A program made the translations under genes and the position numbers. From Prorocentrum cordatum (taxonomy: Eukaryota): DNA of 64,000 nucleotides. Below the pieces are notes generated by a model. That model was not told the DNA's origin. It made no database searches and was given only the letters and a program-made list of their open reading frames with translations. Below are positions 1,540 through 39,368 of this stretch, piece after piece. Location: contig CAUYUJ010000137.1 in NCBI GenBank assembly GCA_963575745.1, positions 496,001 to 560,000 on the forward strand. Reading direction: 5' to 3'. How positions within the stretch are numbered: position 1 is the stretch's first letter; every line of letters starts with the position of its first letter.

Positions 1540-1699
1540 TGGATGGTGGGCTCACAGACGTGCCAGGACGCCTCGCCACTGCTTGAGACGCCGCCGGCGC
1601 GTCGGCGGAGAAGCGGGGGCGCTGCGCGGGGCAGCGGGCGCGACCACCGCCGCGCCCCGGAGCGAGGACGGGGAGGGGGAAGGAGGAGGGGGAGGAGGA

Positions 1700-4600
1700 G
1701 CGAACGTCACCTGAGGGGGCGACGGTCTGGTCAGCCGCGCCGCGGCGCGCCGGCTCACCCCGTCGGATCTGCGGGAAGATGGAGAGCACGGCGCGCGGCG
1801 GCGATGGCGGAAGTCTGCTTGCTGCACGTCATGGGCTGGACGTCATCTCTCGTCAGGTGGCATGCCCTGGCGGCCACGCTGAGGCGCGAGACCGAGTTCG
1901 GGATGCCATTCTCGCCGTCGAAGGGCTCTGACAAGTCACTGACGAGGGGGGCAGGGCGAGGCGCGCGAGAGGGTTGGCACTCAGCCGGCCACGCAGCAGG
2001 CTCAGCTGGCGCCACATCCGCTCGCGCACGAGGTGGTGCTGGACGCGGTCGTTACCCTGCGGGTGCGCGCGCCCAAAGTGGCAGGGGGTTGTCCTGAATG
2101 ACGTGCATTCTGTGTTTCGTAGCCCACGCGCCCGCGAACGCTTTCACAGCGGCCCACATCCTCGCTGGCGGCAACGTCGCGAGGTAGGTGCGTAGACGCT
2201 TCCAACGCGCTGGCAGGTCGGCTGGAACGCGCTGGAGCTGTGCAAGATCTGCTGGCTCGCTTTCATCTGCTGGTGAGTTTTCGTCGCGCATGTCGTCGTC
2301 GGGGTCGGCGCCTGAGTCAGGGATGCGGTACGGCAGGAAATTGGCAACCCATCGGCGTCTGGCTCGGTGCTGTGCGGCTCCATATTCGAACAATGCGTTC
2401 TGGCTGCGCGTGTCCTCCCCAATGTTGGTCACTCTCGTGAGACGCCGTTCGAGTAGCATGCGGCCGACGCCGCTGTTGCCCCACGGCTGCGCGCGCATGT
2501 TGACGGCGACGCGGCGGCGCTGAGCGTCCGCGTCGCACAACGGGGGGAACAGGCCGGTGCCGAGCAGTTCGCACAGCCAAATGTTGCACAACTGGGCCCA
2601 GTCGCCCCGGCCGTCGACGCGGCGGTCTCGAAGCAGGATGTCGGGGCGCCAATGAGACGCCCACGCTCGACGTCGTGTGAAAAGACGTTCTTGCCACGGC
2701 GGTGGCCGTTCGGCGGTTCGGGGGGGAGCTGCTTGACAGGGTCCAGAACAGCGAACTAGGCAAGAAGACGACGCTTGATGGTGTCGGGCATGGTGTCGAC
2801 GTAAAGCTGCTCGGTTAGTGGCATCATGCACGCTTTCTGTGGCGTGATCTTGGCAGGTTTGCGACGATGAGATCGGTCTTGTTGTTGTGATTCCTGCGCT
2901 GGCTGGCGTTGGAGGAGAGCTTGAAGGCCTGCTCGCGCAGCAAGCTTGCTCGCGCCAACGATTGCTGCGCGTGCGCGTGGTAGCGGCCCAGCAGCGCGAG
3001 TCAGACGTTTGAGATGAAAGCCTTGACAATCAAAGGAGAAGGTGGAGTTGGTGATGCCCTCGAAGCGCTGGACGATGGCGGTCTTGATTTCCCCCAGCGA
3101 TGATGTCTGGGCCTGGCAGCGCACAGGTGGGTGCGACGATGCACTTCTTCGCTTGGAGATGGAGACCCGCAAGCGTCTCGGCGGCGATCATGCTCGGGGC
3201 GATCGCACTGGCGTCGTGGAGTCTGGCGAGGATGACGCCTAGGTCGCCGGCGCAGGCGCTGACGAGGCCGCGCTCGATGGCCCTGAGCTCGGAGCTGATG
3301 GCCGCGATGATAGGGCCGAAGAAGAGGGCCCAGAATGCGCCACTCATGGGGCAGCCTTGAGCTATACCCGATGCCGCGGCGAGCGGCGGGCGTCGCTCTC
3401 CCCCATGTCCAGGCGCGAAACCGGCCAGCGGCAGCAGACCTGGATAAGGCGCAGCATGTTACCGTGAACGCCCCAGCGCGTGAAGGAGTTCCACATCGAC
3501 GGATGGCCGAGACTCGGGAAGGCGGCCGCGCTGTCCATGCTGACGAGGACGGGCATGTCTGCCGATGCTGAAGGTGATCGGCTGAGTTGTCTGGCGGCTG
3601 CGTCTACCACGACAACGTTGTTCACAAACTGGCGGCAGCTGACGATGCCCTGCTGCTCGGGGGGCGCCTGGGCGGCGAGGGCGCGGACCTGGCGGTCGGC
3701 GGCGGAGACCGACAACTCCGCGCCCGAGCTCTTCATTGATAGCGGACGAAGGCAATCTGGAGCGCGAGTGCACTCTGCGCTGTTACTCGGCTCGTCGCCT
3801 TTTCGGCAACATTGCCATGCGGGAGTAGAGGTCGTGCGGAATGTTGTCGTTGGCGGCGACGTCGTTGCAAGCGTCGGCCAGAATGTCGAGGCTGCCAGGC
3901 GCGCGGGGCCGCGCCTTGCATGGAAGAGCGGCCGGGCCAGGCGCGGAGCCCCCAGCAAGCCCGGCGGCTTTCTCGAGCGCCCGCGCGCCAGGTAGCGGGA
4001 GGTCGGCAGGTCGACGCCGAGCGAAGATGGAATCCAGGTACTCGGCGAGGCGCATGACAGCCACGTGTTCCCCTGCAAATACTAGGGCCCAATGCCGCGC
4101 GATGGCCTGGTGCATGGCTGCGGGGTCAGTCGCTGCGCTGGCCAAGCTGTCGGCGATGACCTCGGCGCCCAACGCGAGGCGCTTGGAAAATGGTTCCCGC
4201 TGTTCTCCGCGAAGCCCTTCACGCGGGGCGCGCTGGCGCCATTTTTGGCAGAGGGGGGCGTCATTGACTGCGCGTGCTGCTCCCGAACGGGCTGCCGCAG
4301 GCGCCTTGCGCTCATCGCCGAGGCAGGCGTGCGTGGAGTCAGTCGCCACGGAGAAGTTCATGTCGTCGATGCCGACGGCGCCCGCCACGATCTCCAGTTG
4401 GGGCCCGCCGGCGCCGGCGTTCTCGATCAGAGCCTTCGCGAGCGGGGCGATCTGATGCCAGACGGCCCTGGCGACGCCGCGCAGGGCCCCGGCTCGGGCC
4501 TCGCGAGATACCGAGGCAGACTGCGACTGCAACTCGGCGGCAAAGATCTTGGCGAGCACGTTGCGTGCTCCGGCCCGCGCAGGCGGATGCGCAGGTGCAT

Positions 4601-6646
4601 GATCTTGCGGTGGCTGATGGGGCCCTTGCCGTTCTCGAGCGGCGAGTCGTCGGAAACGCAGATTGTCTCCATGGGGGGCACGAGGCATGAAGCAGCGGTC
4701 AGCCGTCGATTCACTCATGGCGGCTTGGAATCTGCGCGTCGTGGGCGGAGCGGCAATCTCGATCGCGTCGCGGAACAGGTTGCGCCAGAAGCCGGGCTGG
4801 CATTGCTAGCGCTGCGCGGCTGTGGCGTCGGCGCACACGGGGGCGTCGATCGACTTCGGCGGGAATTCGGAGACGTTGAAGTCCCCCGCTATGACAAGGT
4901 GACGGCGGCGCGGTTGCTCGCCAGCACGAAGCCGAAGCGCAAGCCCCTGGTCGCGGAGATGAAGCCGATCGGCAGGAGTGAAGCCGCAATTGTGGACGTT
5001 GGGGACGGCGACTTCAAACTGGAGGCTGGCATCCGAGACTGGCAGACAAGCGGCGCGGCCAGGGATGGCGACCTCGAACCTGGCGCGAGGATGGAGTTAT
5101 TGCGGAAGGTGCTGTTCATTCCTGCCGAACGGAACCAGGAAGCCGACGCCGCCCGCGTTGGTGACGGGTGCGCCGCCGACGATCATCGAGGAGTTGCACG
5201 GCTTGTATTTGTGCTGCGTGGAATTGGCCAGGACGGTGAAGTCGACCAAAGTGCCATGCATTTCTTGCACTGCACTGAGAGCACGCTGTCCGAAGTAAGG
5301 CAGAAGTGGGCGAAGCTCACCAGCGCAACGCTGGTCTGAATGACCAAGTAGAGCTCGAGTGCTCCAGGAAGCGACGTTGAGGCCCTCCTGCGGGGGCGCG
5401 AGGAGCCAAGGGCTTCAGTGGTGGCTGAAGCCACTGTGCAGCAGAGAGCGCGTCTGCGAAGTTGGACTCGAACTCGGACTGGATTTCCTGCTGGATGGGA
5501 GCCGTCGAAGCCTGGGTAGACAGCAGCGCGGGACCACTGGAGCTTAGTAGGCACGACAGCTGTGCCACCAAAGAAAAGGCGCACCACAACTTCACCACGG
5601 CTCGGCACGAAGTCCAATGTTCCGCGTGGACTTAGGTCGATTTCTGACTTTGCATGTTGCATGATCTTGGCGAGGCGGTCGACCTGGATCTCTGCGCGCA
5701 CAGCGTTCGGTCTTCCGTCGGCCGACACGTGGAGAGGAACGTGCGAACCATGAGCCACATGAGAAAGAAAAAAAAAAGTTGCCCGCGCACGCGCCGTGCC
5801 CGAAGCTCCGCAACCACGGTACCACCGCTGACTTGTAACGAGTGGCGCTTGGCGGGGCCGACTGTGCTGAAAATGGTCATGTTCTTGTTGATCTCGGCTT
5901 TCGAGAACCAGTCTGCGAAGGCGCGCTCGAGCTCGGGCTGAGTGAACTCCTGCGGGCTGCTGCGCCAGTACGTGGTGGGGCCAGGGTCGCGATCCCAGGT
6001 GCCCAGTCCATCCAGGTTGAGCACACGTACTCTGGCTTCTGCAGATGTGACGATGGCTTCCAGCTCGGCGACGGCGACTCTGAGGTCGATGTTCTGCTGC
6101 TCGAGGATGTTGGTGCGCTCATTGGCTGCGGTGATATTTCGTTATGTAGCTTCGTGACGTTAGCTGAGCTCTGCGGTGATCTGCGTGCGATTGGCGAGGA
6201 ATTCGTTGCTAGCTTGCGCAATGACGGCTCTGGCGGTACCTTCGAACTTGTCTGAAGCGTCTCTGATTTGTGCGGCCATGATCTCCTCAAGCTGCTTTCG
6301 AACGTGAACGGGCAAGCCGTGCACTGCAAGCTTCGCTGCTCCATCATGCCATGGGTCCGGTTGTCGTTTGGCACCATCGTAGTCTTGACCACTGGCTGCT
6401 GATGACGTTGGTGTTGCTGCGAATGGTGTCGTTGGCGTTCCCATGGGAGCACGCTGATTGCCTGCGCCAGCCTCGGTCGATCGCGCGTGGAGGCTGCTGC
6501 AGGCGAGTGCAGGGCCGAATACGAAGCTTAACCAGCAGGGCAGCTGGAAGGCGTGGGATGGAAAGCAGGTCCTCAGCTGTCCCTGGACCAAGGATCTCCG
6601 TGCTCTGCCACAGGGCGGAATCTTCTTGAGCCAAAACTGCTACGGT
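1700..6646 (-). mobile_element. Decayed LINE (non-LTR retrotransposon) 1: SL, ORF1-like, APE endonuclease, RT, C-terminal region
   Basis: APE motif LVIAGDFN (GDFN 4875-4886); RT motifs LRPLSM, MDSAAAFPSLGH, QGCPMSG (~3340-3359) and ACAGD (degenerate xADD, 3243-3257); coiled-coil ORF1-like pieces ~5330-6450; many stops and frameshifts; GGA-rich tracts at 1670-1700 and 6647-6707. Confidence 0.85.
6625..6646 (-). other. Genomic dinoflagellate spliced-leader copy at the 5' end of LINE 1
   Basis: Reverse complement ACCGTAGCAGTTTTGGCTCAAG matches DinoSL at 20/22. Confidence 0.85.
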
Positions 6647-6984
6647 GGAGGAGAAGGAGTAAGAGGAGGAGGAGGAGGAGGAGGAGGAGGAGGAGGAGGA
6701 GGGGGAGATGGACTGCTTGACAGCTGGGGTCCTCTCGGACCCGGAGCTCGGAGATCGCCGCGGGCGGCGCCCCAGGAACGCCGCCCGAGGCTTCGGTGGG
6801 GGGGCCTGGCTAGAGGTCTCCTAGATGGGGTCGGAGCGCATGTGGTCGGAGGATCGCGCAGCATCGCCGATGCATCGGCGATGCATCGGCGATGCATCGG
6901 CGATGCTTCGGCGACGTCGGCGTGGAGAGAACCGGTCCCCGCATCGAGCCGCACCGTCGATGAATCGGGGATGCGGCGCGCTGA

Positions 6985-7668: not shown

Positions 7669-10104
7669 ATTACACCATACAAAAGCGTATGGTTATTCGG
7701 GCGTTTGCGAGTAGGCACTCTGCGGGTCGCGGAGCCCGCTCGGCGAATGGCGTGCGCACACGCCCGTCCTGGCCGAGGCCTGGAGGCTCTGCACGACAGG
7801 GCCAGCCCCCGGCTCGCCCCTGTCCCTCGGGTGGGCGTGCCCAGACGCGATGGCCGCCCTGGGGATGCGACCTCAGACACCGAGGGAATCCGTAAGATCG
7901 GCATCCAGGTGAGGCGATGCCAGTCCTAGGGAGAGGGGTGTTGCCAGGCTGGTAACACCACCCCGGGCCCCCATCCCCCATCCTTCAGCCACCTTCCCCG
8001 AGCCGGATCGATCTGCGAGGGTCCTGGGGCCAGACACGGGGGAAAAACGCCCGTTGTGAAACAAATGCAACGCCCGGATCCGAGGGTACGTACGTCTTCG
8101 GTGGCAACTCACGGGAGCCTCCCATACCATCTTGTCGGCTCTTGCGAATCGACGCTGATCCGCGCTGAATCGACGCCAACCTGATTACCAGACGCTAATC
8201 GACACTAGTGCGCTCCAAAGACGCACCCACGAAGGCACGCAAGGCTCCCATGCTCTGCCCCGAGCGCGCCCGTCATGGCCGAGGTCGCGGGGCTCTGCAC
8301 ACCAGCCTCGGGGCACGGGGTGGCCTTGGCCCAGGCCCCGTCGAGGATCTAACAGCACACTCCCATGCCCGTGGGGGGTCGGGGGGCTGGTTGTTGCATT
8401 CCCAAAAAAAAATTGAATTCGATAAGCCAGCACCTGTTTTTGAATACAAAAATCTGACTTTGAATTCAAAAACCCGTGGGGGGTCGGGGGGCTGGTTGTT
8501 GAATTCAAAAACAAGCACCGGCTGAGGGTGTGGGTGCGGATCCTCGGACCCTGGGTGGGGCTCCCCTGCGAGCGGGGAGGCCCCTCCAGCAACACGCGCA
8601 CCCATGACTCCCTCCGCCACCCCCTATGGGTATGGGTGCGTGCACAGGGTGCCCCTCTGCGAACGCCTGCGCGCTGCGGCCCGCCGCCTGCAGCAGCCCC
8701 ACCCCGTCGCTCTCCTCCGGGAGAGGCCCAAAAAAGCCCCGACGGAGCACTGCCAGAGCCGATGGAGGAAGTACGCACAGTGAGGATGCAAGGGCCTTGC
8801 ACGCCCAAGCCGGAGCTCTCGAGCGGCACTGGCCATCGAAGAGGGGTGGGGGCAGGGTAGGGGTGGACCGAGGAGGCAAGGGTTACGAGGGGTACCTCTG
8901 GGAAGACTTTATGCATCCTCACTATCGGTATCGACTGCGAAGCCTCCCAGACGGGGTCCGAGTAGATGTGGTCGGAGGATCGCGCCGCATCGCCGCCGCA
9001 TCGCAGATGCATCGCCGATACATCGGCGCCGTCGGCGCGGAAGAGATCGGGCTCCACATCGCGCCGCATCGCCGATGCATCGCCGATGCATCGGCGAGCG
9101 GCAGCGATGTGGCGCGACCATGCGACCGCACAGCCGCTCCGACCTGACCTGACTACCTACCAGACCACCCCCACCCAACCCGAAGACCCGAATTTCGCCT
9201 GAATTCCGGGTTGGAGGAGGTACGGGCCTCATGTGTGTGTTTGTCCATGTTCCCGTGCCCCCACCCCACCGGACATCGAGGGCAGATCGGAGCCCTCGGG
9301 CTGGGTTGGGGTGGCTTCGTGGGCGGTGGTGGCCTGGGAGGCCCAGAGACTGTCAGCCCAGGCAGAGGCCGAGCGCTCCGTGCGGGCCTCCTCCGCACGG
9401 CTTCGGCACCCCGTCGCTCTACTCGGCCGCCGCGGCGCAGCCCTCGGGGGGCGCCGCCCCGGCCGCCGCCAGGACGAGCGCCAGGGCCGCGGAGGCCCGG
9501 GCGGGGAGCGCCATCGGGCGTTCTGCCGCGCGGAGGGGGGCGGGGCGCGCACCTGCAGAGGCCTCCCAGAGGAGCGACGAACAGAAACGGGTCTTACGCG
9601 GGATGGCACACAGGACAGCCCGTACGAGAAGGAGGCACGAGAAGGATGCCAGGGCCTTGGAAGGTCACGTCGACACTTTGCGAGCAGGGCGCGCCCAGCG
9701 AAAGCGTTCAAGGATGGGCCGAATGGGGAAGGATGCAAGGGAAACCTTGGAAAGTTGCACATCCGTACAGCGCGGGTTGACTTACAGTCATCGTGCCAGT
9801 ATAGGGAACGCATAATAACAAAACGACGGGGATTTGTTTCTGGCCACGGGCCACAAACAGGTTAGACGACTGAACAATAAGGAACGGCCCAAAACCCCGA
9901 GCCCCTCCTAAGCCCTAAGCGGTCCTTATATCAGAGCCTTGGCTATCTCGATCTTACGCGACTGCGTACGCGGGCCGCCAACGCGGAACGCCACACTGGA
10001 AGCGAGTGTGCTTGCACGCGAACTTACGCGGGCAGCTTACGCGCCAATGTCGGTGAAAACGACCCCCCGAGCATTCGAGCCCGAGACGGGTAATTAAGGG
10101 GCCT

Positions 10105-13085: not shown

Positions 13086-13304
13086 CAGAATCGATGCGAA
13101 TCGCCGCTAAGTCGGCGCATCGTCACCGACTACCAGGCGCCAGCGCGCGCGAGTGCACTCGAAAGACGGAGCTTGCGAGGACACGCAAGGCTCCCATGGG
13201 TCTGCCAGCGAAGGCTCTGCCGAGCCACGTCCTCGGCAAGGCCCGCCCGCTGCCTCCCCCCGCTGGCTGCGCGAGTGCAGCGCGCGCACTCGCGGCGCCC
13301 CCTC

Positions 13305-13389
13305 CTTGCGGTGGTAGTCCCTGGCGCGGAGTACGTAGTCTTTGTGCTTCTCCAAGTACCCGAGCTTCTTGCGCTGGGCAGGCTGGTGC
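13305..13389 (-). CDS. UTP11: Isolated exon of U3 snoRNP / SSU processome protein Utp11
   Basis: Translation (R)HQPAQRKKLGYLEKHKDYVLRARDYHRK matches the conserved Utp11 N-terminal motif (QP..R...G.LEKHKDY..RA..YH.K); acceptor ctccgcgcAG|G; donor uncertain (GA or GC). Confidence 0.75.
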
Positions 13390-14788
13390 CTGCGCGGAGC
13401 GCCCGATCCGCTGCGGTGAGCACTCAAGACACAGTCTGCGCCGTTCCATGGACTCTCACCCTGTTCGCAGGAGCGGCCAGCATCGAATCGGCACACCAGA
13501 TCGGATCGGAACGTGCGTTGGATCAGGCTGCATCCACACGGAGTCGGACTCGAATCGGATCGGCCGCTCCTGGATGTACACGGGCGCCATAGCAGCATCG
13601 GGCAGCACCGCATAGTCGGAATACCGAAATCGGATCGGATCGGGCTGGCCGAGACCGATCCCGAATTGGAATCGATCGGACCGGACTGGATCGACCGGGA
13701 CGACCTTCCCCGGCTGCCGCCGACGACCCTCGCCCTTTCCCCGCCCCCCACACGCCCCCTGCGTGCGTGCTTGCCTGCTGCTGCCCTTGCCGCCCCCCCA
13801 ACCTCCCCTCCCCTGCTTGGGTCCGCTCGCCATGGTTTCCCTCCTCTCCGAAATAAGAAACAGTGCTTTTCCACCTGCTGCAGTACAGCACACGATGTGC
13901 AACTGCAGGCCATCCCTGAAGAGACTACCCCTCAGGTCCGAAACGTTGTGTGCTGAAACCTGGCACGGTGGGCGCTGGGGGCCAAAACAGCTTGTTTGGG
14001 TCAGATCGCCGTGCTTGTTCATCTCCCCCCCTGGGCTTTTGGTGCTCCCATCGTACTCAAAGACCAGATCCCAGAAATAATTTCGAGCAGCCTGAAAAGT
14101 GTCGAACAAGTGTCGAACGAGTATCGCCTCCCAGGGCCCGACACGTGAAAACCCTCAAGTTTCGGTACGTTCTTGGTGCTCAAGGCTAAAGGTGATCAAG
14201 GCTAAAGTAGGCTAAAATGAGTTGGAGCATCATAATTCTGGGCCTTCTTCCTGCCGTCCTCCGAATCTTGCAGGCTGGCGCGGGGCCATCCCTCTGCCGC
14301 GGCGCCCTTCGCAGTGCGCGTGCGCGCTGCACCAGGGCCTCCACTGACGATCCGAGCAACTTGCTCTTGCGATCGTCCACATTTGAACCGGTGGCCAGGG
14401 TCGCGTGGCCAGCATCATGTCAGGACCACCCCGCGCCCCTGTATTGCTGCCGCTGATCTGACCGCGGTTGAAGGTTTCAATGGCTTACTGACTGTCCTGT
14501 AACCTTAGTTGCCCGTGCAGAGTATTCGATCTTCGACTTTTTGGTGCAGCCACCCGACTGTGCCAAATCGTCTCTGCTGGTTACGTGCCACAAGTTGCCG
14601 CTGCTGCTCCTCCTCCCCCTCCACACCGTGCGAGCGCGCCATTCGGACGTCGTGAGTCCCCCCGAGGGTGCACGGCCAACATGCGACAGTCCACGCCGCT
14701 CCGAGGGAAAGGGCCGAGCGGAGAGGGTCCGAGACACTTCTAGGACGAGCCCCTCGTAGCTCCTGCGGCGCCCCAGAGACGCCCCGGG

Positions 14789-14922
14789 AGAGGAGGAGGA
14801 GGAGGAGGAGGAGGAGGAGGAGGAGGAGGAGGAGGAGGAGGAGGAGGAGGAGGAGGAGGAGGAGGAGGAGGAGGAGGAAGGAGGAGGAGGGGGGGGAGGG
14901 GGAGGGGGAGGAGGAGGAGGAG
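14789..14922. repeat. (GGA)n microsatellite
   Basis: About 30 perfect GGA units followed by a degenerate tail. Confidence 0.95.
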
Positions 14923-15046
14923 GCGGGAGCCCGCGCGGCGCCTCTCCAGGTGCACCCGCCGGTGCACGACGCGGCGCAGGTTGCCGTCGCCCCCGCCCAT
15001 TGTCGCCACGCGCGCGGGGAGCACGTCCTGCCCCGCCCATATAGAG

Positions 15047-15202: not shown

Positions 15203-15269
15203 GCTCGCCCACACCACTTGGCGGGGCCGCTCTCCGCGCGGCGCGAGGCGGCAGAACTCGGGAGGCACG

Positions 15270-15285
15270 GCGACGACGACGACGA

Positions 15286-15329
<44 letters not shown>

Positions 15330-15606
15330 TGGCGGCGGCAGCGGCGGAGACGGAGGCGATGGCGGCGGCGGCGACGAGGACGAGGACAAATCGACGACGA
15401 CGACGACGACGACGACGAATCGACGACTACGAATCAACGACGACAACGACGACGAATCGACGACGAATCGACGACGACGACGACAACGACGACGACTACG
15501 AATCACGACGACGGATCGACGACGAATCACCGACGAATCGACGACGACGACGACGAATCGACGACGACGACGCTGACGACGAATCGACAACGACCCGACG
15601 ACGACA
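15270..15606. repeat. (GAC)n / GACGACGAATC compound repeat
   Basis: Directly visible tandem array. Confidence 0.9.
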
Positions 15607-16689: not shown

Positions 16690-17264
16690 TGTGGTTGCAG
16701 TCGTCGTAATGGCGGTACTAATCGTACCCGTGAGAATTGTCGAATTAAGGGTGGTAGTAATAGTAACCGTGAGAGTTGTAGTCTTAGTAGTAGTGGTAGA
16801 AGTAGCCGTCGTAGTCGTAGTCGTCGTTGCAGAAGAAGAGGCAGTAGTAGTCGTAATAATACTAGTAGCAGTAGCAGTAGCAGTAGCAGTAGTAGTAGTA
16901 TGCGTAGTACTAGGAGTGACAGACGTAGTAGTAGCAGAAGTAGAACTCGTCGCAGTAGTCGTCGTCGTCGCGATAATAATAATAATTGAAGTGTTAGAAG
17001 CAGCAGCGGCAGTAGTCGTAGTAGTACTAGTAGAGTACTAGTAGAAGTGGAAGTAGAAGTAGACGTAGAAGTAGAAGTAGTAACACTAGTAGTAGTAGCA
17101 GTAGTAGTTGTGATAGCAGTAGTAGTAGTAGTAGTAGTAGTCGTAGTAGTAGTACTAGTAGTAGTAGTAGTAGTAGTGGTAGTAGTAGTAGTAGTAGTAG
17201 TAGTACGAGTAGTAGTAGCAGTACTAGTAGTAGTGGTGGTGGTAGTGGTAGGGGTAGTAGTGGT

Positions 17265-17296
<32 letters not shown>

Positions 17297-17580
17297 TAGC
17301 AGCAGTAGTAGCACGACTAGTAATAGCACGAGTTATAGTACGAGTAGCCGTAGTAGTAACAGTAGTAGTAGTAGTAGTAGTAGTAATAGTAGTATTAGTA
17401 GTAGTCGTCCCAGTAGTAGTAGTATCACCCGTGATCATAGTATCGAGAATTAAAAAAAAAGTAGCAGAAGTAGTGGTAGTAGTGCTAGTAGTAGTAGAAG
17501 TAGTAGTGGTGGTGGTGGTAGTGGTGGTGGTAGGAGTAGTAGCAGTTGTAGCAGTAGTAGTGGTAGCAGTAGTACTAGTG

Positions 17581-27066: not shown

Positions 27067-27286
27067 GGCCTCCCAGATGGGGTCGGAGTAGATGGGGTCG
27101 GGGGATCGAGCCGCATCGGCGATGCATCGCCGATGCATTGGTGATGCGCCCGCGACGCCGGCGATGCATCGGCGACGTCGGCGTGGAGAAAATCGGGCTC
27201 CACATCAAGCCGCATCGCCGATGCATCGGCGATGCATCGGCGATGCATCGGCGATACGGCGAGACTCCGACCCCATCTGGGAGTCC
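27067..27286. mobile_element. Most intact family A MITE, with TAGA on both flanks
   Basis: 19-bp perfect TIR ctcccagatggggtcggag (27070-27088 / 27265-27283); GG...CC termini; TAGA at 27063-27066 and 27287-27290. Confidence 0.75.
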
Positions 27287-28233: not shown

Positions 28234-31200
28234 CCTACCTGACCCTCTGCCCCCCACCATCCTGCCGGTAGTATCTGCTCGCCGCCGACAATGGTGGCCT
28301 CCCAGCTGGGGTCGGAGCACATGGGTCGGACGCTCCACATCGCCGATGCATCGCCGATGCACCGGCGACGCACCGGCGACGCACCGGCGACGTCGGCGAC
28401 GCCGGCGTGGAGAAAATCGGCCCCACATCGAGCCGCATCGCCGATGCATCGGCGATGCGGCGCGATCCTCAGACCCCATCTACTCGGACCTCAAAAAGAA
28501 ACAAAAAAAAAACTCCAAAAATCGTCCCCGCACTATTTCTTTACTATGTTTGAATATTCCTCCTGTAGAGGGACAGGCCCGACTTAATCCTAGGCCTACC
28601 TGACCCTCCCCCCCCACACGCCTTCGGAGGAGAAACACAGACCACCCTGAGACCCCCGGTCGCCCATGGGTTCATGGTGTGGGCACGTCACGCTCTCCAT
28701 CGCAAAACCTTCGAAGACCAAGAAACCCAGGGCACCCTGGAGGCAAGCAGGGTGTTTTTGTTGGCATGGGCCCCCACCTGTAGGCCTACCTGACCCTCCC
28801 CCCCAAGCCTTCGGAGGAGAAACGCGGACCACCGCCGCCGAGAACCCATCGGCGAGGTGCCCGCCCCTGGGCGGTGGCACGCCCGAGCGTCACCCCAATG
28901 CAAGATGACGCTCGGGAGTGCCACCGCCCAGGGGCGGGCACCTCGCCGAGGGGCTCTCGGCGGCGGTGGTCCGCGCTCCTCCCCGGAATCCTCCCTGCTC
29001 GGCTGCGAGCGAGGGGGGAAATGAGAAGACGAAGGCCTTCTCAGAAGGCGGCGGGACTTCTCAGAAGCCATCGCGCCTTCCGAGAAGATTTCTGCGTTTG
29101 CGGGGAAGGCTTAGAAAGCTTCTCCGAAGGCCGGGGGACTTCCAAGCCTTCTGAGAAGGCCCGCCCCTTCTCACTTCGCGCCCTCGCTCGCCGCCCACCT
29201 GCAGAATTGGGGAAACCAGAAGTTGCCGATCTGACAAGATGTTCGAGGCGAACTAACGGTGGCGACGAGGGCCTCCCAGGAAGCCAAAAGAGGGCGAAAA
29301 CGAGGGACCGGCAGCAGTATGGGTACCGTCAACCCGCATGGCAAGGATGAGCAACTTTCCAAGGCTAGCTTCGAATCCTTGCCCAGTCGGCCCATCCTTT
29401 GAGACGTTCGCTGGCCAGCCTCGTTCGAAAAACGTTCACACGGGCCTCCAAGGCACTTGCATCCCTACCGCACATCCTTATGACACGGGTTGCCTGTACC
29501 TCTAAATCGGGCGTGTCCCCCTGCAGGGGGATTTGGGGCGAACAAATGAAAATACTGAAAGAATACCCCCCAGATCAAAACATCGTCCTGTAGAGGGACA
29601 CGCCCGAGTTGACTGTACCTCTTCCTCCCCTGCAGAGCTTGCTCGCCGCCGACAACAGAGGCACGCAGCCCTCGCCTGGGGAGGGAGGCACGGCCGCGCA
29701 GACCTCGCCGCCCCCGGCCAGCTCAGCTGGCCCGCGCCGGCGCGGCGCGGCCGCCCCTCCTCTCGGGGTGGACGCTGGGGGGGGGCTTCACGCAGGGAGA
29801 TTTAGCCAAGGGTTTTCTGCGAAGGGGGGGGGGTTAGCGAAGGGGGATGTTGCCCGGGACCCCCTTTGCAAAAAGCCGATTCGCCCAAATCTGACTCGCG
29901 CAGCCGGTCTGTGCAGCGCAGCCCAGCGCCCTCGAGGCGCCCTTGTAATCGAGCGAAGCGCCCTGCAGCGAAGGGGAGACTTCACGAGTGGCGAACCATC
30001 GATTATCCCGAATCGGTTGGAGGCGGGGGTAGGTCTCGGATTTCGACCCCCGCCGCCAATCGAGTTGCTGAAATCGTTGATCGGCACGGTGAGTGCTCGC
30101 ACTTCGCCGTCGATTCAACGCCTTCATGAGTCGGCCCCCCATCCCTCACGAGCGGCAAACCTGGCTATACCTGCGCCCCCGCGGTCCGGATTCCAGGACG
30201 CGATCCCGCGGATACGCGGTCGCACGGATACGTTCCGCACGGGGCATCCGCGACAAAAACGCCCCGCACCCCGGCGTCGCGGCCCAGGACGCCTTCACTT
30301 GTCACTCCCACTCCCGCCCCCCGTCCCTCACGGAGGCGCCCGCGCAATCGGGGGAGGCACCCTGCATCCTGGGCCCTGGGCGGCCCCCCATCCCGCCCCC
30401 CATCCCTCACGGAGGCGCCCGTGTGATCGGAAGCGCGCCGATCCTGGCAAAGCCCGCCCTGGGCCCAGGATAGGAGGAGGAGGAGGAGGAGGAGGAGGAG
30501 GAGGAGGAAGAGGAGGAGGAGGAGGAGGAGGAACACCACCCCGGTTAGCGCAACAGCTCCTGGTGAACTACATGCCGAAATTCATTTTGACGTGCCCTCG
30601 CACGGATGGACTGCCCAGCAAATCTGGCTACCTGGGACCTGTTCAGTAGGCCTTTCCTGCGGGCAGCATTGAACGATGAGAATAACAAATCAGAAGTTAA
30701 AGCACTTGCATGAGTCTGTTCGCGCGCAAGGGCCTCAGAGAGAACACTGTGGGGAGACGACCAGCGATGGGGAAGGATGCAGGCAACAGGATCGACACCC
30801 CAGAAAGAGGGGAGCTGGGGCAGCAAGCGGCGAATACACGGCACAGCAATGGGGCACTCAAAGAAGCGCGGAATGATGTCGGTCCCAGGACACGGGCACC
30901 CGAAAACACACTGAGCGGCGGCTTGACGGAATCACTTGCTCGTCGGCCAAACGTTGGAAAGAGTTTTGAGGATGGACGCAATGATGTAACTAGGGGCATT
31001 CTACCTACAGCATCAAGACGGCGGATAGTCAGTCAGCATCAGCAGAAGTACAAACACTGCCCCAAGATTGCATACGATTGATGACAAGGCGATTGGAGTA
31101 GATGGTGATACGAGTTAGAAGGAGGAACTTTGCGATAGCATGTTGAAGTGGTCGGGGGGGTTTGTCGGAGGGAACGTCTGGAATAGCTATATCACTGTCG

Positions 31201-32283
31201 TATGCTTTTCTCCTGATAATGAAGAGAAGCTTGCGGTGGTAGGGGTGCAGGGAATAGGCGGGGCAAAATTCGTCATCTTCTACAAGTGCCGCGAAACGAC
31301 TACTCATCTCCTAGAACTGCATTGACCTTAGCGCCGTCCTCAGCAGCGACGCGCGTGCAAGGATACTGATCGAGCGGCACTCCAACGACAAACCCAAACG
31401 TTTCAGATGGAACATCACCTTGGGAGGGAATGAGTGACGAGGGGCACGAGGAAGCCGCTGGCGCGAGTCACGTTCACATCGGAGCAGTTCTTTACTTGGC
31501 GGGGATAACTACGCAACGCGTGAGCATACTGGTACAGCATACGTGTTGCAGGCTTGGATACTCTGCACAAAACTCAAGCCCATTTTGCGCACTGCATCTG
31601 TACGTGCCCGCAATTTGCTGGCCACCGGATCCCATGGCGATAGATACCCATCCCACCCAATCCGCGCACCCAGAAGCTTACCCGAATGTTGAGGCAAGAA
31701 CTTCGAAACGTTGAAGCCCCTGGTCTGAACCCCCTCGAAGACCATCGTTATTATTAATATTGATCCTAATGATGGCACACTTGCCGGTGGCCGCCCCAGA
31801 GACAATCATCCTCTTCAGGACGAACGGTAACACCATAAACATATCCCTGGCAGCCAAAGAGAAAGATCGTCGGCGAACGCACGCATCTCGAACTCAAGGC
31901 GGGGTCTTCATTGGAAGGATATCGGAGAACTGGAACCAACGCGAAAAGCACCCCGCTGAGCGGGCATCGTTGTTCCACACCTCTTTTTGCAGCATAACCA
32001 TGCTTCCCGAACTCGCCCATGGATGCGCACGTCCATGCATCATCATATAGAGCAGCGATCGCCGACGCGAGAACTGTTGCCAAGCCCTTGCGCTTCAGCA
32101 CAATATCCAGCTGCGACACGCGCTTGGAAAGGCATTCTTGAAATCGAAGAGCCCAAGCCCGCTCTTCAGCTCGCGCCCCCCCCCCCCCCCCCCCCCCCAG
32201 CGCACACGCGCGCACACGCGCATTTTTATATATATATATATATAATATAATATATATATATATATATTAAAAAAAAATTATAT

Positions 32284-32333
<50 letters not shown>

Positions 32334-33093
32334 AAAAATCCATCTGTGTGATCTCATAATGCATCATCCTTCCTCGCACGAATCCTCGCTGAACTCCATG
32401 AAAATATTCCGAAGCAACATGGTTTAATGTGGTAGTTAGGACAGCACTGACCATTTTACTGTCCGCGTTGGATAGCGAGAGCGGCTGAACAACAGTTGGT
32501 TCCCTTATCTCCTCCCCACCATCCAGGATCTCCCCCTCGGGTCAAAAGACTGCACGACAGTAAGTAATTTGCGGATGAAGCCGCCCGCCTTCCAGAATGT
32601 GCCGATGCAGATCATAGGGGGCAGCGCGTTGAACCTCTCCCGAGTTGCGCCATGCAGAATAAGGCACTCCGTCAGGCCCTGCTGCAGAGTCACTCCTGGC
32701 TTCCAGGATCCTGAAGAAGGCCGTCTCGTCCAAGACCCAGTCGAACCTCTGGCGGGTGCTATTCACATACTGTTCACCTGACCCATCAACCGTTTGGATG
32801 CACCCAAGCGGCGGATGAGTGGAGGGAGGTCGTTGGCAGTCAAGAGGATCAGGTTCATGTTCGCTGTCAAATATGTTGCCCCAGTGCCGAGTCAAGAATT
32901 CAGCAGCTGCATTCGGATCTGAGTGCAACTCACCAGAGGGTTCACGAACGGCAACGAGCCTAATCCTGGGACGCGAAGAAGCGCAGGTAGATGCTAACCG
33001 ACGCACACGGCAAATTGCCTGCTCCGCGGCTGCTGACCCCTCCCTCATCTCCCTGCGGACCTCGGCCTCCTCCTCCTCAGGCTGCAATGTCAT

Positions 33094-34993
33094 GGAGGGT
33101 GCGCCGCTGGATCTCCCCAGGGGGGGTCCTACCCCCTCCCCCCCTTCCCCGATCCGTCGTCGGGGACCCCCCCCTCCCCCCCGGCCCCCAACCCGTCGTC
33201 GGGGACCCCCCCCCTCCCCCCCGGCCCCCAACCCGTCGTCGGGGACCCCCCCCTCCCCCCCCTCAAAAAAGATGGGGTCCCGCCCCCCATCCCCCCCCTT
33301 TCGCCACGCCCGCCCCCTGACTCTCCGGAACCCGACCCCCCGCCACCCCCCTACCCCCCAGTCCTGCCGCTAACCAAACCCCTAATCCCAAAACCACCAC
33401 TAGACCCAGCCCCAAAGAGCGCTCACTACTCATTACTCACTACCCACAACTGACTACTCGCTATTCGCTACTCACTTCTACCTACCCCCTACTCACTACT
33501 CACGACTCAACTATCCACTACTCACTAACAACCACCCACTACTCGCAACTCACAACTCCCAACTCAATACTCCTTCCTCCCTACACACTACTCACTACTC
33601 ACTCCTCACTGCCCACTGCTCAATACTCGCTACTCACTACTCACTAAGAACTACGCACTACTCCCTACTCACTACTCACTACTAACTACTCATTACCCAC
33701 TATCCACGCCTCACTACTCACTACTAACTGCTCATTGCCCACACATCACTACTCACTACCCACTACTCGCTACTCGCTACCCCCCCCCCCCCCCCCCCCC
33801 CCCCCCACTCCCTACACAATACTGACTACACAGTACTCAGTACTCACTGACTCGCTACTCCCTACTCGCTACTCAATATTCACTACTCACTCCCCGCTAT
33901 TCACTATTCACTACTCATTACTTACTACTCCCTACTCACTAGTCGCTACATAGTCTCTAGTCACTAGTCACAACTCACTAGTCACTAGTCACTAGTCACT
34001 AGTCACTTAGTCACTACCCACTACTCACCAATCGCTACTCACTACCCACTATTCGCCACCCACTTCTTACTACTCACTGCTCACGAAACCCTACTCCCTA
34101 CTCCCTACTCACTACTCACTACTCACTACTCACTACTCGCTACTCCCTACTCGTTACTCACTAATCACTACCTACTAATCACTACTGGCTACTCCCTACT
34201 CACTACTCACTACGCCCTACTCGCTCCTCACAACTCACTACTCGCTACTCGCTACTGGCTACACACTGCTCACTACCCACAGCCACTACCCACTACTCTC
34301 TATTCATCACTACTCACTACTCACTACTCACTACGCACTACGTACTCTACTCAGTACTCACTACTTACTACTCGCTACTCACTACTCACTTCACGCTACT
34401 CACTACTCACTACTCACTACTCACTACTCATTACTCACTATTTCCTACCCAGAACGCTCTACGCACTACCCACTACTCACTACTCACTCATCACTACTCG
34501 CCACCCACTACTCACTACCAACTACTCACTACCCACTACTCATTACTCCCTACTCTCTACTCGCTACTCGCTACTCACTACTCACTACTCACTACTCGCC
34601 ACTCACTACTCACATATCAGTACACACTACTCACTATTCACTACTCCCCACTCCCTACTCCCTACTCCCAACTCGCCACTCACTACCCACTACTCAGCAC
34701 CCAATACTCACTACTCACTACGCACTAACTCACTACTTACTACTCACCACTCCCTACTCCCAACTCCGCACTCCCTACGCGAGGGGGCGGGGAACCGACC
34801 CCCCCCCCCCTCCTTTCCAGCGCCAAGGAGGGGAGGGGGGGGGGCGTCCGGAGCCCCCCCCCCCTTCGAAGGAGGAGTAAGGGGCGGAGTTCGCCCCCCC
34901 CCCCCCCCCCCCCCCCCAAAAAGGAGGGGGGGGGGGGTGGGGTTCTGGACCCCCCCCCCTAGTGTACTCGGGGAGATCCACTGGCGCACTTTC
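33094..34993. mobile_element. Non-autonomous TIR element (Mutator-like) nested in LINE 2 ORF2
   Basis: Imperfect TIRs gtgcgcc..tggatctcccc..agggggggtcc at both ends; 10-bp direct repeat GCAATGTCAT at 33084-33093 and 34994-35003; removing it rejoins LASLMTL-QPEEEEAEV. Confidence 0.8.
33420..34775. repeat. Heptamer (CTACTCA)n satellite
   Basis: About 1.35 kb of ctactca/ctactcc/ctactcg units. Confidence 0.92.
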
Positions 34994-37400
34994 GCAATGT
35001 CATCAGCGATGCAAGATGCACATGAAATCCACGCTGGTCGATCCAGGTCATGCTGGGGAGGTTGAAAAACTTGCGCAACCTGCGATATCCTCGACAGGGG
35101 CGAAAGGCATGCGCGCCGCTGCTCGAGCGGGCTACGCGCACGAGCTGCAAAGCACAGGCAGCACGTTCTGGATCTGTCTTGGCCCCTGCGACCTCGACGC
35201 ACCTCCGCGCGTCTGCCGCGGCAATGTGAAAGACCTTTTTTTCAGCCCAGCGACTCGAAATTCTGGTTCATAGCTCAGGGAAGTCGTTCAAACATGATAT
35301 TCCACGAATTCTCTGAATGGGACGCGTTTGGCAATCCACGAGGGCATATTCTGCATTCCAGTCCCCTGGGGCACGCGGCGGTCGCTGGCACAGGAACACT
35401 GGCGCGTGGTCAGACGGCTCGCAGTTGTCCGCGACTTGCCAGGAGACCCCAATATTAGGCCGATGGTCCAACAGCGCCGGGGCCTCCAAATTCACGTAAA
35501 AACAATCGAGTCGAGCGATGGACTGACGATCTCGAACAACAGCACGATGAGTGAACGCCGCGTGCTCGACCTGACTGCACCTGGGGAAATTTCATCACAG
35601 ACGGTGGTTAACCTTGACGGCAAGGGAGAGGAGTGCGGGGGTAGAACATAGAACCGTGCTTCTCCTTGCTCGCGAAAGTTGAGACCACCCACCAGCACGC
35701 TGCAGGCTTGAAATTGAGGAAGAAGGAACCGCGAGAGACGACCAAGGGCATTCCTAGCGAAACCTCCCGACCAATCTGGATCAAGACGTTGCCCCGAGAG
35801 CTGCAAGATTCCTTTGGCGCCGACAAGGGCGAGGGTGAGGGCGCGGCCAGGAGCGCAAACAGACGACGGAACATAATCAAACAGATCTATGAGTTTCCTC
35901 CGTGCCAGGAATACGACCCCTCCATCGTGCGACTCGCTAATGAACGACCCAAAGATCTGGAACTCGGGGTAAGCACTTTCCAGGGCGCGCGGGCCCCCCT
36001 CCTGGCCATGGGTTTCCTGCGCGCAGATTGCGCCCATTTTCCTCGAAAGCCTGGCCAACGCTTACCTATTTTTGAGACCGCGGAGGTAGTGAGTGGAGAT
36101 GGAGCGAAACAGAGCCCGCGCATCCCACGAGCACATGCGCAGAGGCTGAGACGGCAGAAAGGGTTTGGCCACCGAAGGGCCACGCACAGGCGCGGGCCCT
36201 ACTGCACCCCCAGTAGAACATGTCGCTGTGGACGAGAAGGTTGCCGATGCAGCCGAGGAAGGAATGGCTGCCGCTGGCCGCGCATCTGCAGCGCCCCCAG
36301 AACTGCCGGCACATGCGCTCGACGAGGAGGAAGAACTGGCGATCTGGTTGTCGCTGTCAGTGTCGAAGTTGAATTCTGAAACGGCCTCCGATAAGCGCGA
36401 TGAACTTGTTTGTCAAATGTAGGCGCCCCTCGTGTTGATGTCGGCCATTATTATTTTCATTTTGGTGGAGTCTCGCAGGTCTCCTCGCCCACCTCGAATG
36501 CGAAGAACGCGTGGCTGACCTCTGAGGTAGAAACCAAAGGCCATACGTCTTCACCATCGGTCCAGTGAACCGAGCCCTTGTATCCGTTGATGATTGGCTT
36601 GCTCTGAGGCGTGAATTCGGGACTGCTCGGCGATGGGGTCCCAGCATCTGCTCAGCGCCCGCTGCGTGACCCTGACGTCCTTCGGGAGGTCCGTTCTCGC
36701 TTCCAAGTAGTGCACACTCCCATCTCTCGGGTCGGTCAAGGAAGATATGGCTTCGTCGAACATCTCCGTGAAATCCTTCGCGATGGTCTCGCTGGTGATG
36801 CAAAGGCGATATGATTGACAGTACGTGGTACTGTGGCTCAACGTTGTTCAGCATGGTGGAGGTCATCAGGAGCTTCACCTGCTCGAAATGCTCCTGACGT
36901 TTGCTGGCCAGCAGGGGCCTGGGAAATAAGCCAATCCACCTACGGTTCTCGTCGAACGTGTATGATATCGGGTGGCTGGGAGCGGGGGGGGGTGCATCTG
37001 GATGGCGGCGCTCATCGTCAGGTTTCGTCCTCTTCGTCATCGGTGCTGCGCCTCCGCGAAGCACCTCCCATGATGCGGTGCTGGCAGAGGCGGTCGAGCA
37101 TCCCGTTCGAGCTTGGCTTTGAAGAACAGCGATGATAGCAGCATGTTTCTGGAACTGCTTATGTACCTGATCCAGCGATTTGGCCTGGCTGTCGATGGTG
37201 CTCTTGTGGTCGTCCAACTTCCCATTCAGCACACCCGACAAAATGCCAAATGCTCCGCGAAGCTGCTCTGGAGGTTGGCTTGCATGCTCTGCATCTGTTT
37301 CGTCATGTTGTCGCTCAGGGTGGTCTGGATATGTGCGACGACCGCTTGGAGCTGATCACTCGCCATGGCTGCACAAAGGACGGTTGGCGCACACCCAGGA

Positions 37401-38620
37401 AAAAATTAGCCTGACGAAAGACCCAACCATACGTAGTTGTGAATACCGCAATTGTGGATATATTCCTCGGTGGCGCCCCCGGGCCACGAAACGAGTGAGG
37501 GGTGTGCCAGAATGGGGGGGGTGGAACCGCATGCGGGCGCAGCCACTGGGGCCTTCGGTGGAGCTCCTTATGGGGCCACGAAACGTGTGAGGGGTGTGCC
37601 AGAATGGGGGGTGGCACCGCATGCGGGCGCAGCCACTGGGGCCTTCGGTGGAGCTCTCTATGGGGCCACGAAACGTGTGAGGGGTGTGCCAGAATGTGGG
37701 GTGGAACCGCATGCGGGCGCAGCCACTGGGGCCTTCGGTGGAGCCCTTATGCCACGAAGCGTGTGAGGGTGTGCCAGAATTGGCACCGCATGCGGCGCTG
37801 GGGCCTTCGGTGTAGCTCCCTATGGGGCCACGAAACGTGTGAGGGGTGTGCCAGAATGGGGGGTGGAACCGCATGCGGGCGCAGCCACTGGGGCCTTCGG
37901 TGGAGCTCCCTATGGGGCCACGAAACGTGTGAGGGGTGTGCCAGAATGGGGGGTGGAACCGCATGCGGGCGCAGCCACTGGGGCCTTCGGTGGAGCTCCC
38001 TATGGGGCCACGAAACGTGTGAGGGGTGTGCCAGAATGGGGGGTGGAACCGCATGCGGGCGCAGCCACTGGGGCCTTCGGTGGAGCTCCCTATGGGGCCA
38101 CGAAACGTGTGAGGGGTGTGCCAGAATTGGGGGTGGAACCGCATGCGGGCGCAGCCACTGGGGCCTTCGGTGGAGCTCCCTATGGGGCCACGAAACGTGT
38201 GAGGGGTGTGCCAGAATGGGGGGTGGAACCGCATGCGGGCGCAGCCACTGGGGCCTTCGGTGGAGCTCCCTATGGGGCCACGAAACGTGTGAGGGGTGTG
38301 CCAGAATGGGGGGTGGAACCGCATGCGGGCGCAGCCACTGGGGCCTTCGGTGGAGCTCCCTATGGGGCCACGAAACGTGTGAGGGGTGTGCCAGAATGGG
38401 GGGTGGAACCGCATGCGGGCGCAGCCACTGGGGCCTTCGGTGGAGCTCCCTATGGGGCCACGAAACGTGTGAGGGGTGTGCCAGAATGGTTGTGGGAGGG
38501 GGAGGAGGGGGGAGGAAGGGGAGGAGGAGGAAGGAGGAAGGAGGAAGGAGGAAGGAGGAAGGAACGCGGGGACCGTCTCTTCAAAACGAGGACCCAACAA
38601 CACAGGTTGGTTGGGAAAAA
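37401..38620 (-). mobile_element. Helentron-associated (HINE/DINE-1-like) non-autonomous element, copy 1, in the 5' region of LINE 2
   Basis: Ends aaaattagc..cgaaagaccc.accata and ttcaaaacgagg.cccaac..caggttggttgggaaa are shared with copy 2; CCCAACCA sub-terminal inverted repeat with a terminal hairpin; A/T runs at both ends; central tandem array plus purine microsatellite. Confidence 0.6.
37480..38488. repeat. 90-bp tandem repeat array (~11 units)
   Basis: Unit ggggccacgaaacgtgtgaggggtgtgccagaatggggggtggaaccgcatgcgggcgcagccactggggccttcggtggagctccctat; near-identical from 37820 to 38488. Confidence 0.95.
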
Positions 38621-38718: not shown

Positions 38719-38755
38719 CTTGAGCCAAAATGGTTTGAGCCAAAATGGCTACGGT
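38719..38755 (-). other. Tandem DinoSL plus relict SL at the 5' end of LINE 2
   Basis: Reverse complement ACCGTAGCCATTTTGGCTCAAA (21/22) immediately followed by CCATTTTGGCTCAAG (SL nt 8-22, exact). Confidence 0.93.
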
Positions 38756-39368
38756 GAGAGGAGGAGGAGGAGGAGGAGGAGGAGGAGGAGGAGGACAGGG
38801 AGGACAGGGAGGACAGGGAGGAGGGCGGGGAGCGGGGGCGGAGGAGAACGCGAATGAGAATGTCAGACCACTGCGTGATGATGGCGCCTTACACCTGAAA
38901 AGGGGGAGTCCCGCACGGATCCTTGTCGGAACTTCCTCTCGGCCTTTCTTGGAACGTTGGGCCAGGAGCCAAGGTGTCTCCTGGGAACAGGAAGAGACGT
39001 ACCCATCGGTCGGAAGGAAAGAACCGAAGCATGAAGTAGGAAAACAATAAAAATTCATGTGATCTCAGCCCGCGCCTTGAAGAAGGGGTTAAAGGGAAAA
39101 CCGCTCGACTCTTGACCTAGGAAAGCGCCTAAAGCAGATGAGGGTCTGGGACACCAAATCGCACATACGTTCAAGGACCGACGGGTATACACCGGTCCTG
39201 GGTCCAGGATGGGCCCGGCCAGGATCTTCGGTAACAACTCTGAGGAGCCTCCCATACGTTCTAATCGACGCTAAGCGACGCCCAGTCGAAGCCCAGTCGA
39301 CGCTAATCGACACTACGTCGGCGCTAAATCATCGACGAGCAGACGCCAATGGACGCTAACATACGAAG

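Follow-up and report, generated by a model that had tools for sequence, protein, structure and literature searches.

Genomic copies of the dinoflagellate spliced leader (SL, or DinoSL), a sequence that mRNAs acquire by trans-splicing, are known to mark retroposed RNAs, and the AG inside such copies is known to be reused (PMC7245778, PMC5585692, PMC6050394, PMC12014239). Among the SL-tagged genes described by Song et al. in 2017 (PMC5585692), the Gene Ontology (GO) term 'RNA-dependent DNA replication' was over-represented and was read as gene activity, while there and in Song et al. 2018 (PMC6050394) the enzyme of retroposition was left open or copia elements were favoured. Here we describe a stretch of 64,000 nucleotides from the dinoflagellate Prorocentrum cordatum (contig CAUYUJ010000137.1, positions 496,001 to 560,000; hereafter the window), which holds two long interspersed nuclear elements (LINEs), element 1 and element 2, each headed by a genomic DinoSL copy and lying between (CCT)n tracts. 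These elements are like the tagged units of 2017 in carrying the genomic 22-nt leader at the 5' end and in the presence of relics at the internal AG, but here it is the retrotransposon itself that is tagged, which is so in no fewer than three distant LINE families, with a microsatellite as its boundary. The genomic DinoSL and the reuse of its AG are thus the known parts of the picture, and what appears to be new is that a LINE is itself SL-headed and microsatellite-bounded. The best explanation overall, which we hold with considerable confidence, is that such LINEs are copied from trans-spliced RNA, with the leader defining and renewing their 5' end.

Several described systems share some of these properties. 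Microsatellite-specific LINEs, namely Kibi, Koshi, Waldo, Mino and Dong, were reportedly described by Kojima and Fujiwara in 2004; the present elements resemble them in layout, namely in having the same repeat on both sides, in a repeat type that differs between families and in head-to-tail stacking, but those elements are not known to carry a spliced leader. SLACS, CZAR, CRE and NeSL-1 are LINEs with a restriction-like endonuclease that insert into SL RNA genes. They too show a LINE physically linked to spliced-leader sequence, whereas here the SL makes up the first bases of the element, the endonuclease is of the apurinic/apyrimidinic (AP) type and the location is a microsatellite. In the accessible text of PMC4640811, microsatellite targeting is stated only for LINEs with a restriction-like endonuclease. 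The nearest functional analogue is provided by R2 and L1Tc, in which the 5' end is processed by a ribozyme like that of hepatitis delta virus (PMC3185411, PMC4035085): an element lacking a reliable start of its own is freed from a host co-transcript and its 5' end is fixed. In our elements, by comparison, this step would be host trans-splicing, which would also supply the cap. The SymbioLINE-Dnmt elements of Symbiodiniaceae (de Mendoza et al. 2018, PMC5890265) combine a first open reading frame (ORF1) with an ORF2 for endonuclease and reverse transcriptase (RT); their untranslated regions (UTRs) are conserved, and they show target-site duplications but lack a poly(A) tail. What ORF1 encodes in them is a DNA methyltransferase (DNMT); no such domain was found here, as DNMT families gave no match in any frame of the 5' region of either element, nor in the ORF1 of five relatives. 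The text of that paper contains none of the terms 'spliced leader', 'DinoSL' and 'microsatellite'. In the accessible parts of a 2024 review and of two papers on viral insertions, SL and LINEs are mentioned next to each other without being joined into a single structure. We found no description of SL-headed or microsatellite-bounded dinoflagellate LINEs in the literature outside subscription journals and supplements, and neither claim appears in the accessible text of PMC7245778, PMC12014239, PMC3942190, PMC8045281, PMC5585692, PMC6050394, PMC11453091, PMC5890265, PMC10235124 or PMC9651163.

The leader copies were located by scanning the whole window with a DinoSL 21-mer (CCGTAGCCATTTTGGCTCAAG), allowing up to three mismatches. 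There are two matches, both on the minus strand, at 6625-6645 (two mismatches) and 38734-38754 (one mismatch), a number that was reached in none of 100 shuffles, and the base before each of them is an A, i.e. the D position of the leader. On the minus strand, the site of element 1 reads (CCT)n-cttactccttctcctcc-ACCGTAGCAGTTTTGGCTCAAG, with no relic leader behind the SL, and that of element 2 reads (CCT)n-ctc-ACCGTAGCCATTTTGGCTCAAA, with a relic leader, CCATTTTGGCTCAAG (38719-38733), abutting its 3' side. This relic corresponds to the part of the SL after the internal AG, and is the remnant that, as the Polarella paper describes, is to be expected from transcription of a genomic leader copy followed by a new round of trans-splicing. 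Each SL sits 5' of one LINE on the same strand (two LINEs out of two), at a distance from the endonuclease of 1.2 kb in element 1 and 2.6 kb in element 2, the latter including a 1-kb tandem array. The arrangement of SL and LINE in the window is confirmed to be far beyond chance, and a chance juxtaposition of the two was rejected as a reading.

As for the element ends, the window is rich in (CCT)n tracts of at least four units, with 12 on the plus strand and eight on the minus strand, yet their total of 662 nt makes up only some 1% of its length; of the eight on the minus strand, three adjoin a LINE end. A self-BLAST of the window revealed no other repeat pair that brackets either element, and hence no long terminal repeats (LTRs), and the window elements have no poly(A) at the 3' end, where they finish in (CCT)n. 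The claim of the initial annotation that both LINEs are headed by an SL and bounded by (CCT)n is hence borne out by the SL scan, the tracts and the bodies delimited by tblastn. The finer order that it gave, (CCT)n-SL-ORF1-AP endonuclease-RT-(CCT)n, stands for both elements in outline, with the reservation that the ORF1 homology of element 2 is not significant and that the tract at 1670-1700 is imperfect.

The bodies themselves were recognised through their relatives. A word-based search gave one relative, P0001, which covers an endonuclease as well as half of an RT, the first. With P0001 as the seed, exhaustive searching by HMMER yielded a family of 3595 cluster representatives, many of them 1150-1270 aa long. 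All 370 tblastn high-scoring segment pairs (HSPs) produced by 151 family proteins fall on the minus strand within 1934-5450 or 30809-36160, with none in the rest of the window, so that the window holds exactly two LINE bodies with one SL before each. Evidence for the RT comes from tblastn, with E-values to about 1e-24 at 3096-3811 and 1e-23 at 32338-33039, and the endonuclease part was located in the same way from relatives (4689-5450 and 35061-36160). Pfam searches of the window ORFs gave weak RT matches (E 0.1-0.3), and the sole match above that among single-ORF fragments was Exo_endo_phos at 4809-5096 (E=2.4e-4; 21.4 bits, under the 24.5 cut-off). Both Exo_endo_phos and RVT_1 are carried by P0001 and by all seven full-length relatives, of which seven pass the cut-off for RVT_1 and four that for Exo_endo_phos. 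The family consensus has a C-C-H-C motif at its C-terminus, and the RT gives similar scores against the solved structures of R2 and L1 (E 8e-12 to 4e-9). Judged by this homology, both elements are AP-endonuclease-type non-LTR retrotransposons, i.e. LINEs. Outside the SL and the tracts they have no nucleotide similarity in common, and their direct translated similarity is minimal; they therefore represent distinct, very different families.

The two elements also differ in how much of their layout can be traced. For element 1, a hidden Markov model (HMM) of ORF1 from SL-LINE relatives gave three best window matches that are collinear (6163-6639; 5635-6141, E=9e-5; 5186-6118), and the ORF1 proteins of the relatives gave no tblastn match to the window at E<=1e-3. 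The ORF2 homology of this element stops at 1934, about 230 nt short of the C/T tract. The C-terminal-most family matches leave some 60-80 residues, and the frame of element 2 ends at 30545-30547, 12 nt before (CCT)20. The tandem array of element 2 lies in the same open frame as its putative ORF1, the two being parted by a single stop at 37356-37358, and the (CTCACTA)n array of this element is a secondary expansion or insertion. Stops and frameshifts are abundant in both elements, a sign of heavy decay. A related array of 90-bp units, with about 72-77% identity to that at 37481-38489, is present at 51100-52330, 13 kb off, with no adjoining LINE homology.

The same layout is found in LINEs that were collected with a query holding nothing on the SL, namely two RT peptide motifs from a 12-sequence alignment. 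This LINE-first scan matched 399 stretches of metagenome contigs, of which 123 were confirmed and 80 loci kept. Allowing up to three mismatches, the SL was found at 15 sites in 14 of the LINE loci, in all 15 cases on the ORF2 strand and never on the opposite one. Among the 12 loci that include the N-terminus of ORF2 and at least 1000 nt upstream of it, eight (L139, L141, L145, L149, L150, L156, L179 and L193) have an SL 1.2-1.6 kb before ORF2, with ORF1 frames of 330-470 aa in between. Three of the four SL-less loci probably do not extend to the position where the SL would be expected: ORF1 homology puts it beyond the contig start in L147 and L159 and, as a borderline case, at the very contig edge in L146, and a degenerate 12-mer is seen in L164. 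Upstream of the SL, the sequences are unrelated between loci except for simple repeats. It had been predicted from the window that other full-length copies would begin with an SL and have no conserved sequence further upstream, and this held in the relatives (eight of the 12 loci); the SL-headed LINE layout is general. Four loci have an SL downstream of the ORF2 end. In one of them, L155, the 3' end of a LINE gives way to a brief stretch of (TA), behind which come an SL and then ORF1 homology (58% identity), so that two elements stand head to tail.

Starting from the leader instead of the LINE leads to a further family. Exact SL copies in genome contigs were scanned for, with hits in eukaryote contigs mis-binned into bacterial metagenome-assembled genomes (MAGs), and the 20 unique sites comprise six SL RNA genes, in which the SL is followed by GTAC and preceded by different sequence, two sites with too little upstream sequence and 12 others. 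A microsatellite stands directly before the SL at four of these 12, of the types (GT), (TCA)n, (AGAGAGAC)n and (GACA)n. The (AGAGAGAC)n case, L132 (1-8137), is a contig filed under a bacterial MAG, where the repeat is followed by the SL, an ORF1 (406 aa) that carries a zinc finger of the RanBP type and an ORF2 that is open for at least 2260 aa, its endonuclease and RT being far from the N-terminus. There is no tblastn match between L132 and P0001, and by its coding content L132 is a LINE unrelated to the P0001 family that likewise has microsatellite and SL at its start. Overall, there are no fewer than three distant LINE families whose full-length copies open with the SL. The scan also revealed a lone DinoSL between two copies of one 19-nt sequence (ttttgcttgcaggcgtgag; L127:7980-8045), which may be a retroposed bare leader with its target-site duplication.

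One could ask whether LINEs of this kind target SL RNA genes, in which case the SL would be part of the target and not of the element. The SL sequence does abut the element, but what lies upstream is a microsatellite instead of the surroundings of an SL gene, the same repeat recurs on the 3' side in place of an SL intron, the leader is complete with a relic behind it, and true SL RNA genes read SL-GTAC with other sequence upstream. Neither window element interrupts an SL RNA gene, the flanks being microsatellite on both sides. We give this reading hardly any credence, and rejected it.

DinoSL copies also turned up in another context. A scan of viral contigs returned nearly exclusively AT-rich giant-virus bins (L001-L119), a poor sample of dinoflagellate DNA, and in bins such as GVMAG-M-3300023179-82, GVMAG-M-3300023174-52 and GVMAG-S-3300013131-116 the exact DinoSL stands before many genes on both strands. 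The motif AAAA[T/A/C]TGA occurs 47-52 nt upstream in 122 of 134 unique viral SL contexts (at 48-50 nt in 119), and in 127 of the 134 the leader is preceded by an A. This motif resembles the mimivirus early promoter. These viruses seem to open their transcripts with a host leader that they encode themselves; a literature search returned no title on giant viruses encoding DinoSL.

The repeat next to the SL deserves closer attention, as it is here that the window elements and their relatives part ways. Under a strict rule (a perfect microsatellite of at least 12 nt ending no more than 12 nt from the SL), seven of the 15 SL sites in LINE loci have such a repeat, compared with 226 of 42,662 control positions taken from these loci (0.53%); in the window this is true of one of the two SLs, the other tract ending 16 nt away, compared with 4.1% of window positions. 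The upstream repeat of the relatives is mostly (TA)n, with a (CAT/CAG)-type repeat in L145, and (AGAGAGAC)n also occurs. Many relatives close with a short 3' UTR that leads into an A-run and (TA)n, shorter forms of this ending being seen in L150, L155, L160, L165 and L182; locus L162 and locus L179 have (TA)n on both sides. These observations suggest a shared rule, namely the same simple repeat on both sides, of a type that depends on the family, which is how microsatellite-directed LINEs look.

This matters for a more specific proposal, in which the elements are promoterless and depend on trans-splicing, and a pyrimidine microsatellite turns the AG inside the genomic SL into a splice acceptor. 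Several facts speak for it: the relic leaders are proof of a second splicing at that AG, the 30 nt before the SL are 97-100% pyrimidine in the window (0.97 and 1.0 in the two elements), element 1 lies downstream of an exon of Utp11 in the same orientation, and the AG-free run before the SL is 71 and 120 nt in the window, with a median of 48.5 nt over 18 sites against 12 at controls. The long AG-free runs are, however, largely due to the repeats themselves, and the only pyrimidine-rich cases are the two window elements: with mostly (TA)n before the SL, the relatives bring the median pyrimidine share over the 18 sites to 0.47, at the background of 0.53 seen at control positions. In addition, the upstream repeat of L132 is purine-rich and itself contains AG, which makes it a counter-example to the AG-free pattern, and the presence of the repeat at the 3' end too points to an integration mechanism and not to selection on the 5' end. 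Microsatellite-directed integration, or a microsatellite tail, accounts for the two-sided repeat more readily than splice-acceptor selection does. The suggestion in the initial annotation that the pyrimidine tract creates an acceptor is therefore not general and is at best specific to the window families, and we consider the proposal as a whole unlikely.

How, then, would LINEs copied from trans-spliced RNA proceed through their cycle? The LINE RNA would first gain a DinoSL by trans-splicing, as dinoflagellate mRNAs do, and the RT of the element would copy this RNA to its capped 5' end, giving a new full-length copy with the SL as its first 22 bases. Integration would occur in, or be primed on, a microsatellite that matches the 3' tail of the element; in the window families a (CCU)n RNA tail would pair with a nicked (GGA)n strand, the repeat of the relatives being mostly (TA)n. 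Such tail-matched integration would leave the repeat on both sides and would allow elements to stack head to tail. The resident copy would then be transcribed from upstream and trans-spliced again, where use of the AG inside the genomic SL would leave a 15-nt relic of the kind observed, and use of the terminal AG of the SL might renew the element with no scar left behind. The idea of an SL-capped RNA as the template of retrotransposition, already put forward for the window, gains support from the SL at the head of both window LINEs and of eight of 12 independently found loci. Likewise, the relics in element 2, L141, L145 and L149 support the view that a number of source copies, at the least, had transcription entering from upstream and went through a second splicing at the internal AG of their genomic SL.

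Those relics also bear on the possibility that the retroposed leader, perhaps with the adjacent repeat, acts as a promoter and lets copies initiate transcription at their own 5' end instead of by read-through, as in the TTT(G)-motif idea that PMC5585692 and PMC6050394 put forward for retrogenes. A single SL without a relic is seen at 12 of the 15 sites in relatives, and a leader variant common to several copies could be inherited, both of which would sit well with such a promoter. Relics in three relatives and in element 2 nevertheless require a start further upstream, and a start inside the SL would give no complete 22-nt leader unless the RNA were re-spliced, which makes a leader promoter quite improbable in our view. 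Another way to place an SL at the 5' end would be template switching, with the RT joining LINE cDNA to SL RNA or to another capped mRNA. Mammalian U6-L1 chimeras offer an analogue, and nothing in our data is specific to this process. The presence of just the 22-nt exon, with no SL-RNA intron, the consistent distance of the SL before ORF1 and ORF2, and relics cut exactly at the internal AG all speak against it; we regard it as very improbable and rejected it.

Returning to LINEs copied from trans-spliced RNA, a more far-reaching version can be formulated for dinoflagellate LINEs as a group. They would have given up a promoter of their own and would use host read-through, the leader they carry would serve as a self-renewing 5' end with both AGs of the SL as acceptors, so that a capped RNA of full length would be regained in each round, AG-poor microsatellites would make the SL AG the first usable acceptor, and the same enzymes, copying SL-capped RNA to its last base and integrating at microsatellites, would be the long-sought source of thousands of SL-tagged retrogenes. 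This broader version is possible, although in so complete a form we lean against it. Element 1 lies about 6.6 kb downstream of the Utp11 exon and in the same orientation, which fits read-through transcription but proves nothing. The exon in question is an Utp11-like first coding exon at about 13299-13391 on the minus strand (Pfam Utp11, E=1e-11, profile positions 7-37), and no further Utp11 exons were found by ORF-wise Pfam search.

A number of points weigh against the account favoured here. Both window copies are old, full-length and dead, so there is no activity at this locus, and the ORF1 of element 2 has no significant similarity to the ORF1 HMM of the relatives. By the strict rule, a repeat immediately before the SL is lacking at eight of the 15 sites in relatives, and an A-run with (TA)n, or (TA) of at least five units, is present within 700 nt in only nine of 46 relatives with at least 150 nt past the ORF2 match. 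The metagenome contigs could be DNA or unprocessed RNA. A leader variant that has lost the internal AG, CCGTATCC, is common to L141, L156, L162 (two sites) and L179; four of these five sites are from a single metagenome sample and represent different subfamilies, and the leader may here have been inherited with the element instead of renewed, or the variant may be the host organism's own leader. As both ends of each window element lie in the same simple repeat, a target-site duplication is indistinguishable from the repeat. Lastly, the repeat could be either the target or the tail, both being compatible with our data, and no empty site was found among the joints of sequencing run X1 that skip about 5.4 kb (1586 to 6981). 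These joints were rejected as an empty site, given that what they join are two copies of a flanking repeat that is very abundant.

Run X1 is the one DNA run that carries part of the window (0.22 of sampled words). It holds several diverged copies of the element 1 body, with repeat tracts masked in read placement; no reads of X2 were placed on the window, and those of X3 gave four short pieces. A short interspersed repeat around (GCATCGGCGAT)n occurs at 6811-6980, 1310-1496, 27063-27275, 28296-28493, 8944-9328 and 1-134, flanking element 1 on both sides, and its summed contig depth in X1 rises to about 30,000, compared with 2-80 over the LINE body.

If LINEs are indeed copied from trans-spliced RNA, they would solve the problem of the 5' end and of the promoter through host trans-splicing, a third way next to that of internal promoters and that of 5' ribozymes. 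Specific LINE families whose RT would reach the capped 5' end of SL-bearing RNA would also become candidate enzymes for the mass formation of retrogenes in dinoflagellates. Furthermore, counts of retrogenes that are based on upstream DinoSL relics would include LINE ORFs, and the presence of such ORFs among SL-tagged genes would explain the enrichment of 'RNA-dependent DNA replication' in Song et al. 2017. On the practical side, the order microsatellite-SL-ORF1-ORF2-microsatellite could serve as a search key for full-length LINEs in dinoflagellate genomes. The features of the two window elements are collected in Table 1.

Table 1. Features of the two SL-headed LINEs, with positions counted from the first base of the window.
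Feature	Position	Strand	Basis or remark
Element 1, 5' flanking (CCT)n tract	6647..6707	-	(GGA)20.3, 86% matches
Element 1, genomic DinoSL copy ACCGTAGCAGTTTTGGCTCAAG	6625..6646	-	SL scan; 2 mismatches to 21-mer
Element 1, 5' UTR and decayed ORF1	5451..6624	-	ORF1 HMM; tblastx collinear with L141
Element 1, decayed ORF2	1934..5450	-	AP endonuclease ~4689-5450, RT 3096-3811, C-terminal part 1934-2210
Element 1, 3' tract, C/T-only, imperfect CCT-like	1670..1700	-	Sequence ctcctcctccccctcctccttccccctcccc
Element 2, 5' flanking tract, (CCT)n and (CCTGTCCTC)n	38758..38830	-	(GAG)12.7 plus (GGAGGACAG)3.7 at 38758-38822
Element 2, genomic DinoSL copy ACCGTAGCCATTTTGGCTCAAA	38734..38755	-	SL scan; 1 mismatch to 21-mer
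Element 2, relic leader CCATTTTGGCTCAAG	38719..38733	-	Part of SL after internal AG
Element 2, tandem array, 11.4 units of 90 bp (30 aa each)	37481..38489	-	Repeat search; in frame with putative ORF1
Element 2, putative ORF1, open frame of 332 aa	36357..37355	-	Position alone
Element 2, AP-endonuclease part of ORF2	35061..36160	-	tblastn
Element 2, (CTCACTA)n array, 190 copies, 1.3 kb, between endonuclease and RT	33422..34759	.	Repeat search
Element 2, RT and C-terminal part of ORF2	30545..33039	-	Homology 31251-33039 and 30809-31081; stop 30545-30547
Element 2, 3' (CCT)20 tract	30472..30532	-	(AGG)20; 12 nt past ORF2 stop

The remainder of the window holds several other features. Open frames at 52900-55752 (minus strand, 951 aa), 57178-58755 (minus strand, 526 aa) and 60109-62379 (plus strand, 757 aa) gave no Pfam match. 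Long open frames on the plus strand at 39841-47338, which include a copia-type RT (RVT_2, E=4e-15, 45209-47338), probably belong to a Ty1/copia element. Finally, the window contains very long trinucleotide arrays, namely (AGT)374 at 16774-17890, (CAT)357 at 49099-50167, (ACG)106 at 15267-15605 and (GAG)44 at 14790-14923.

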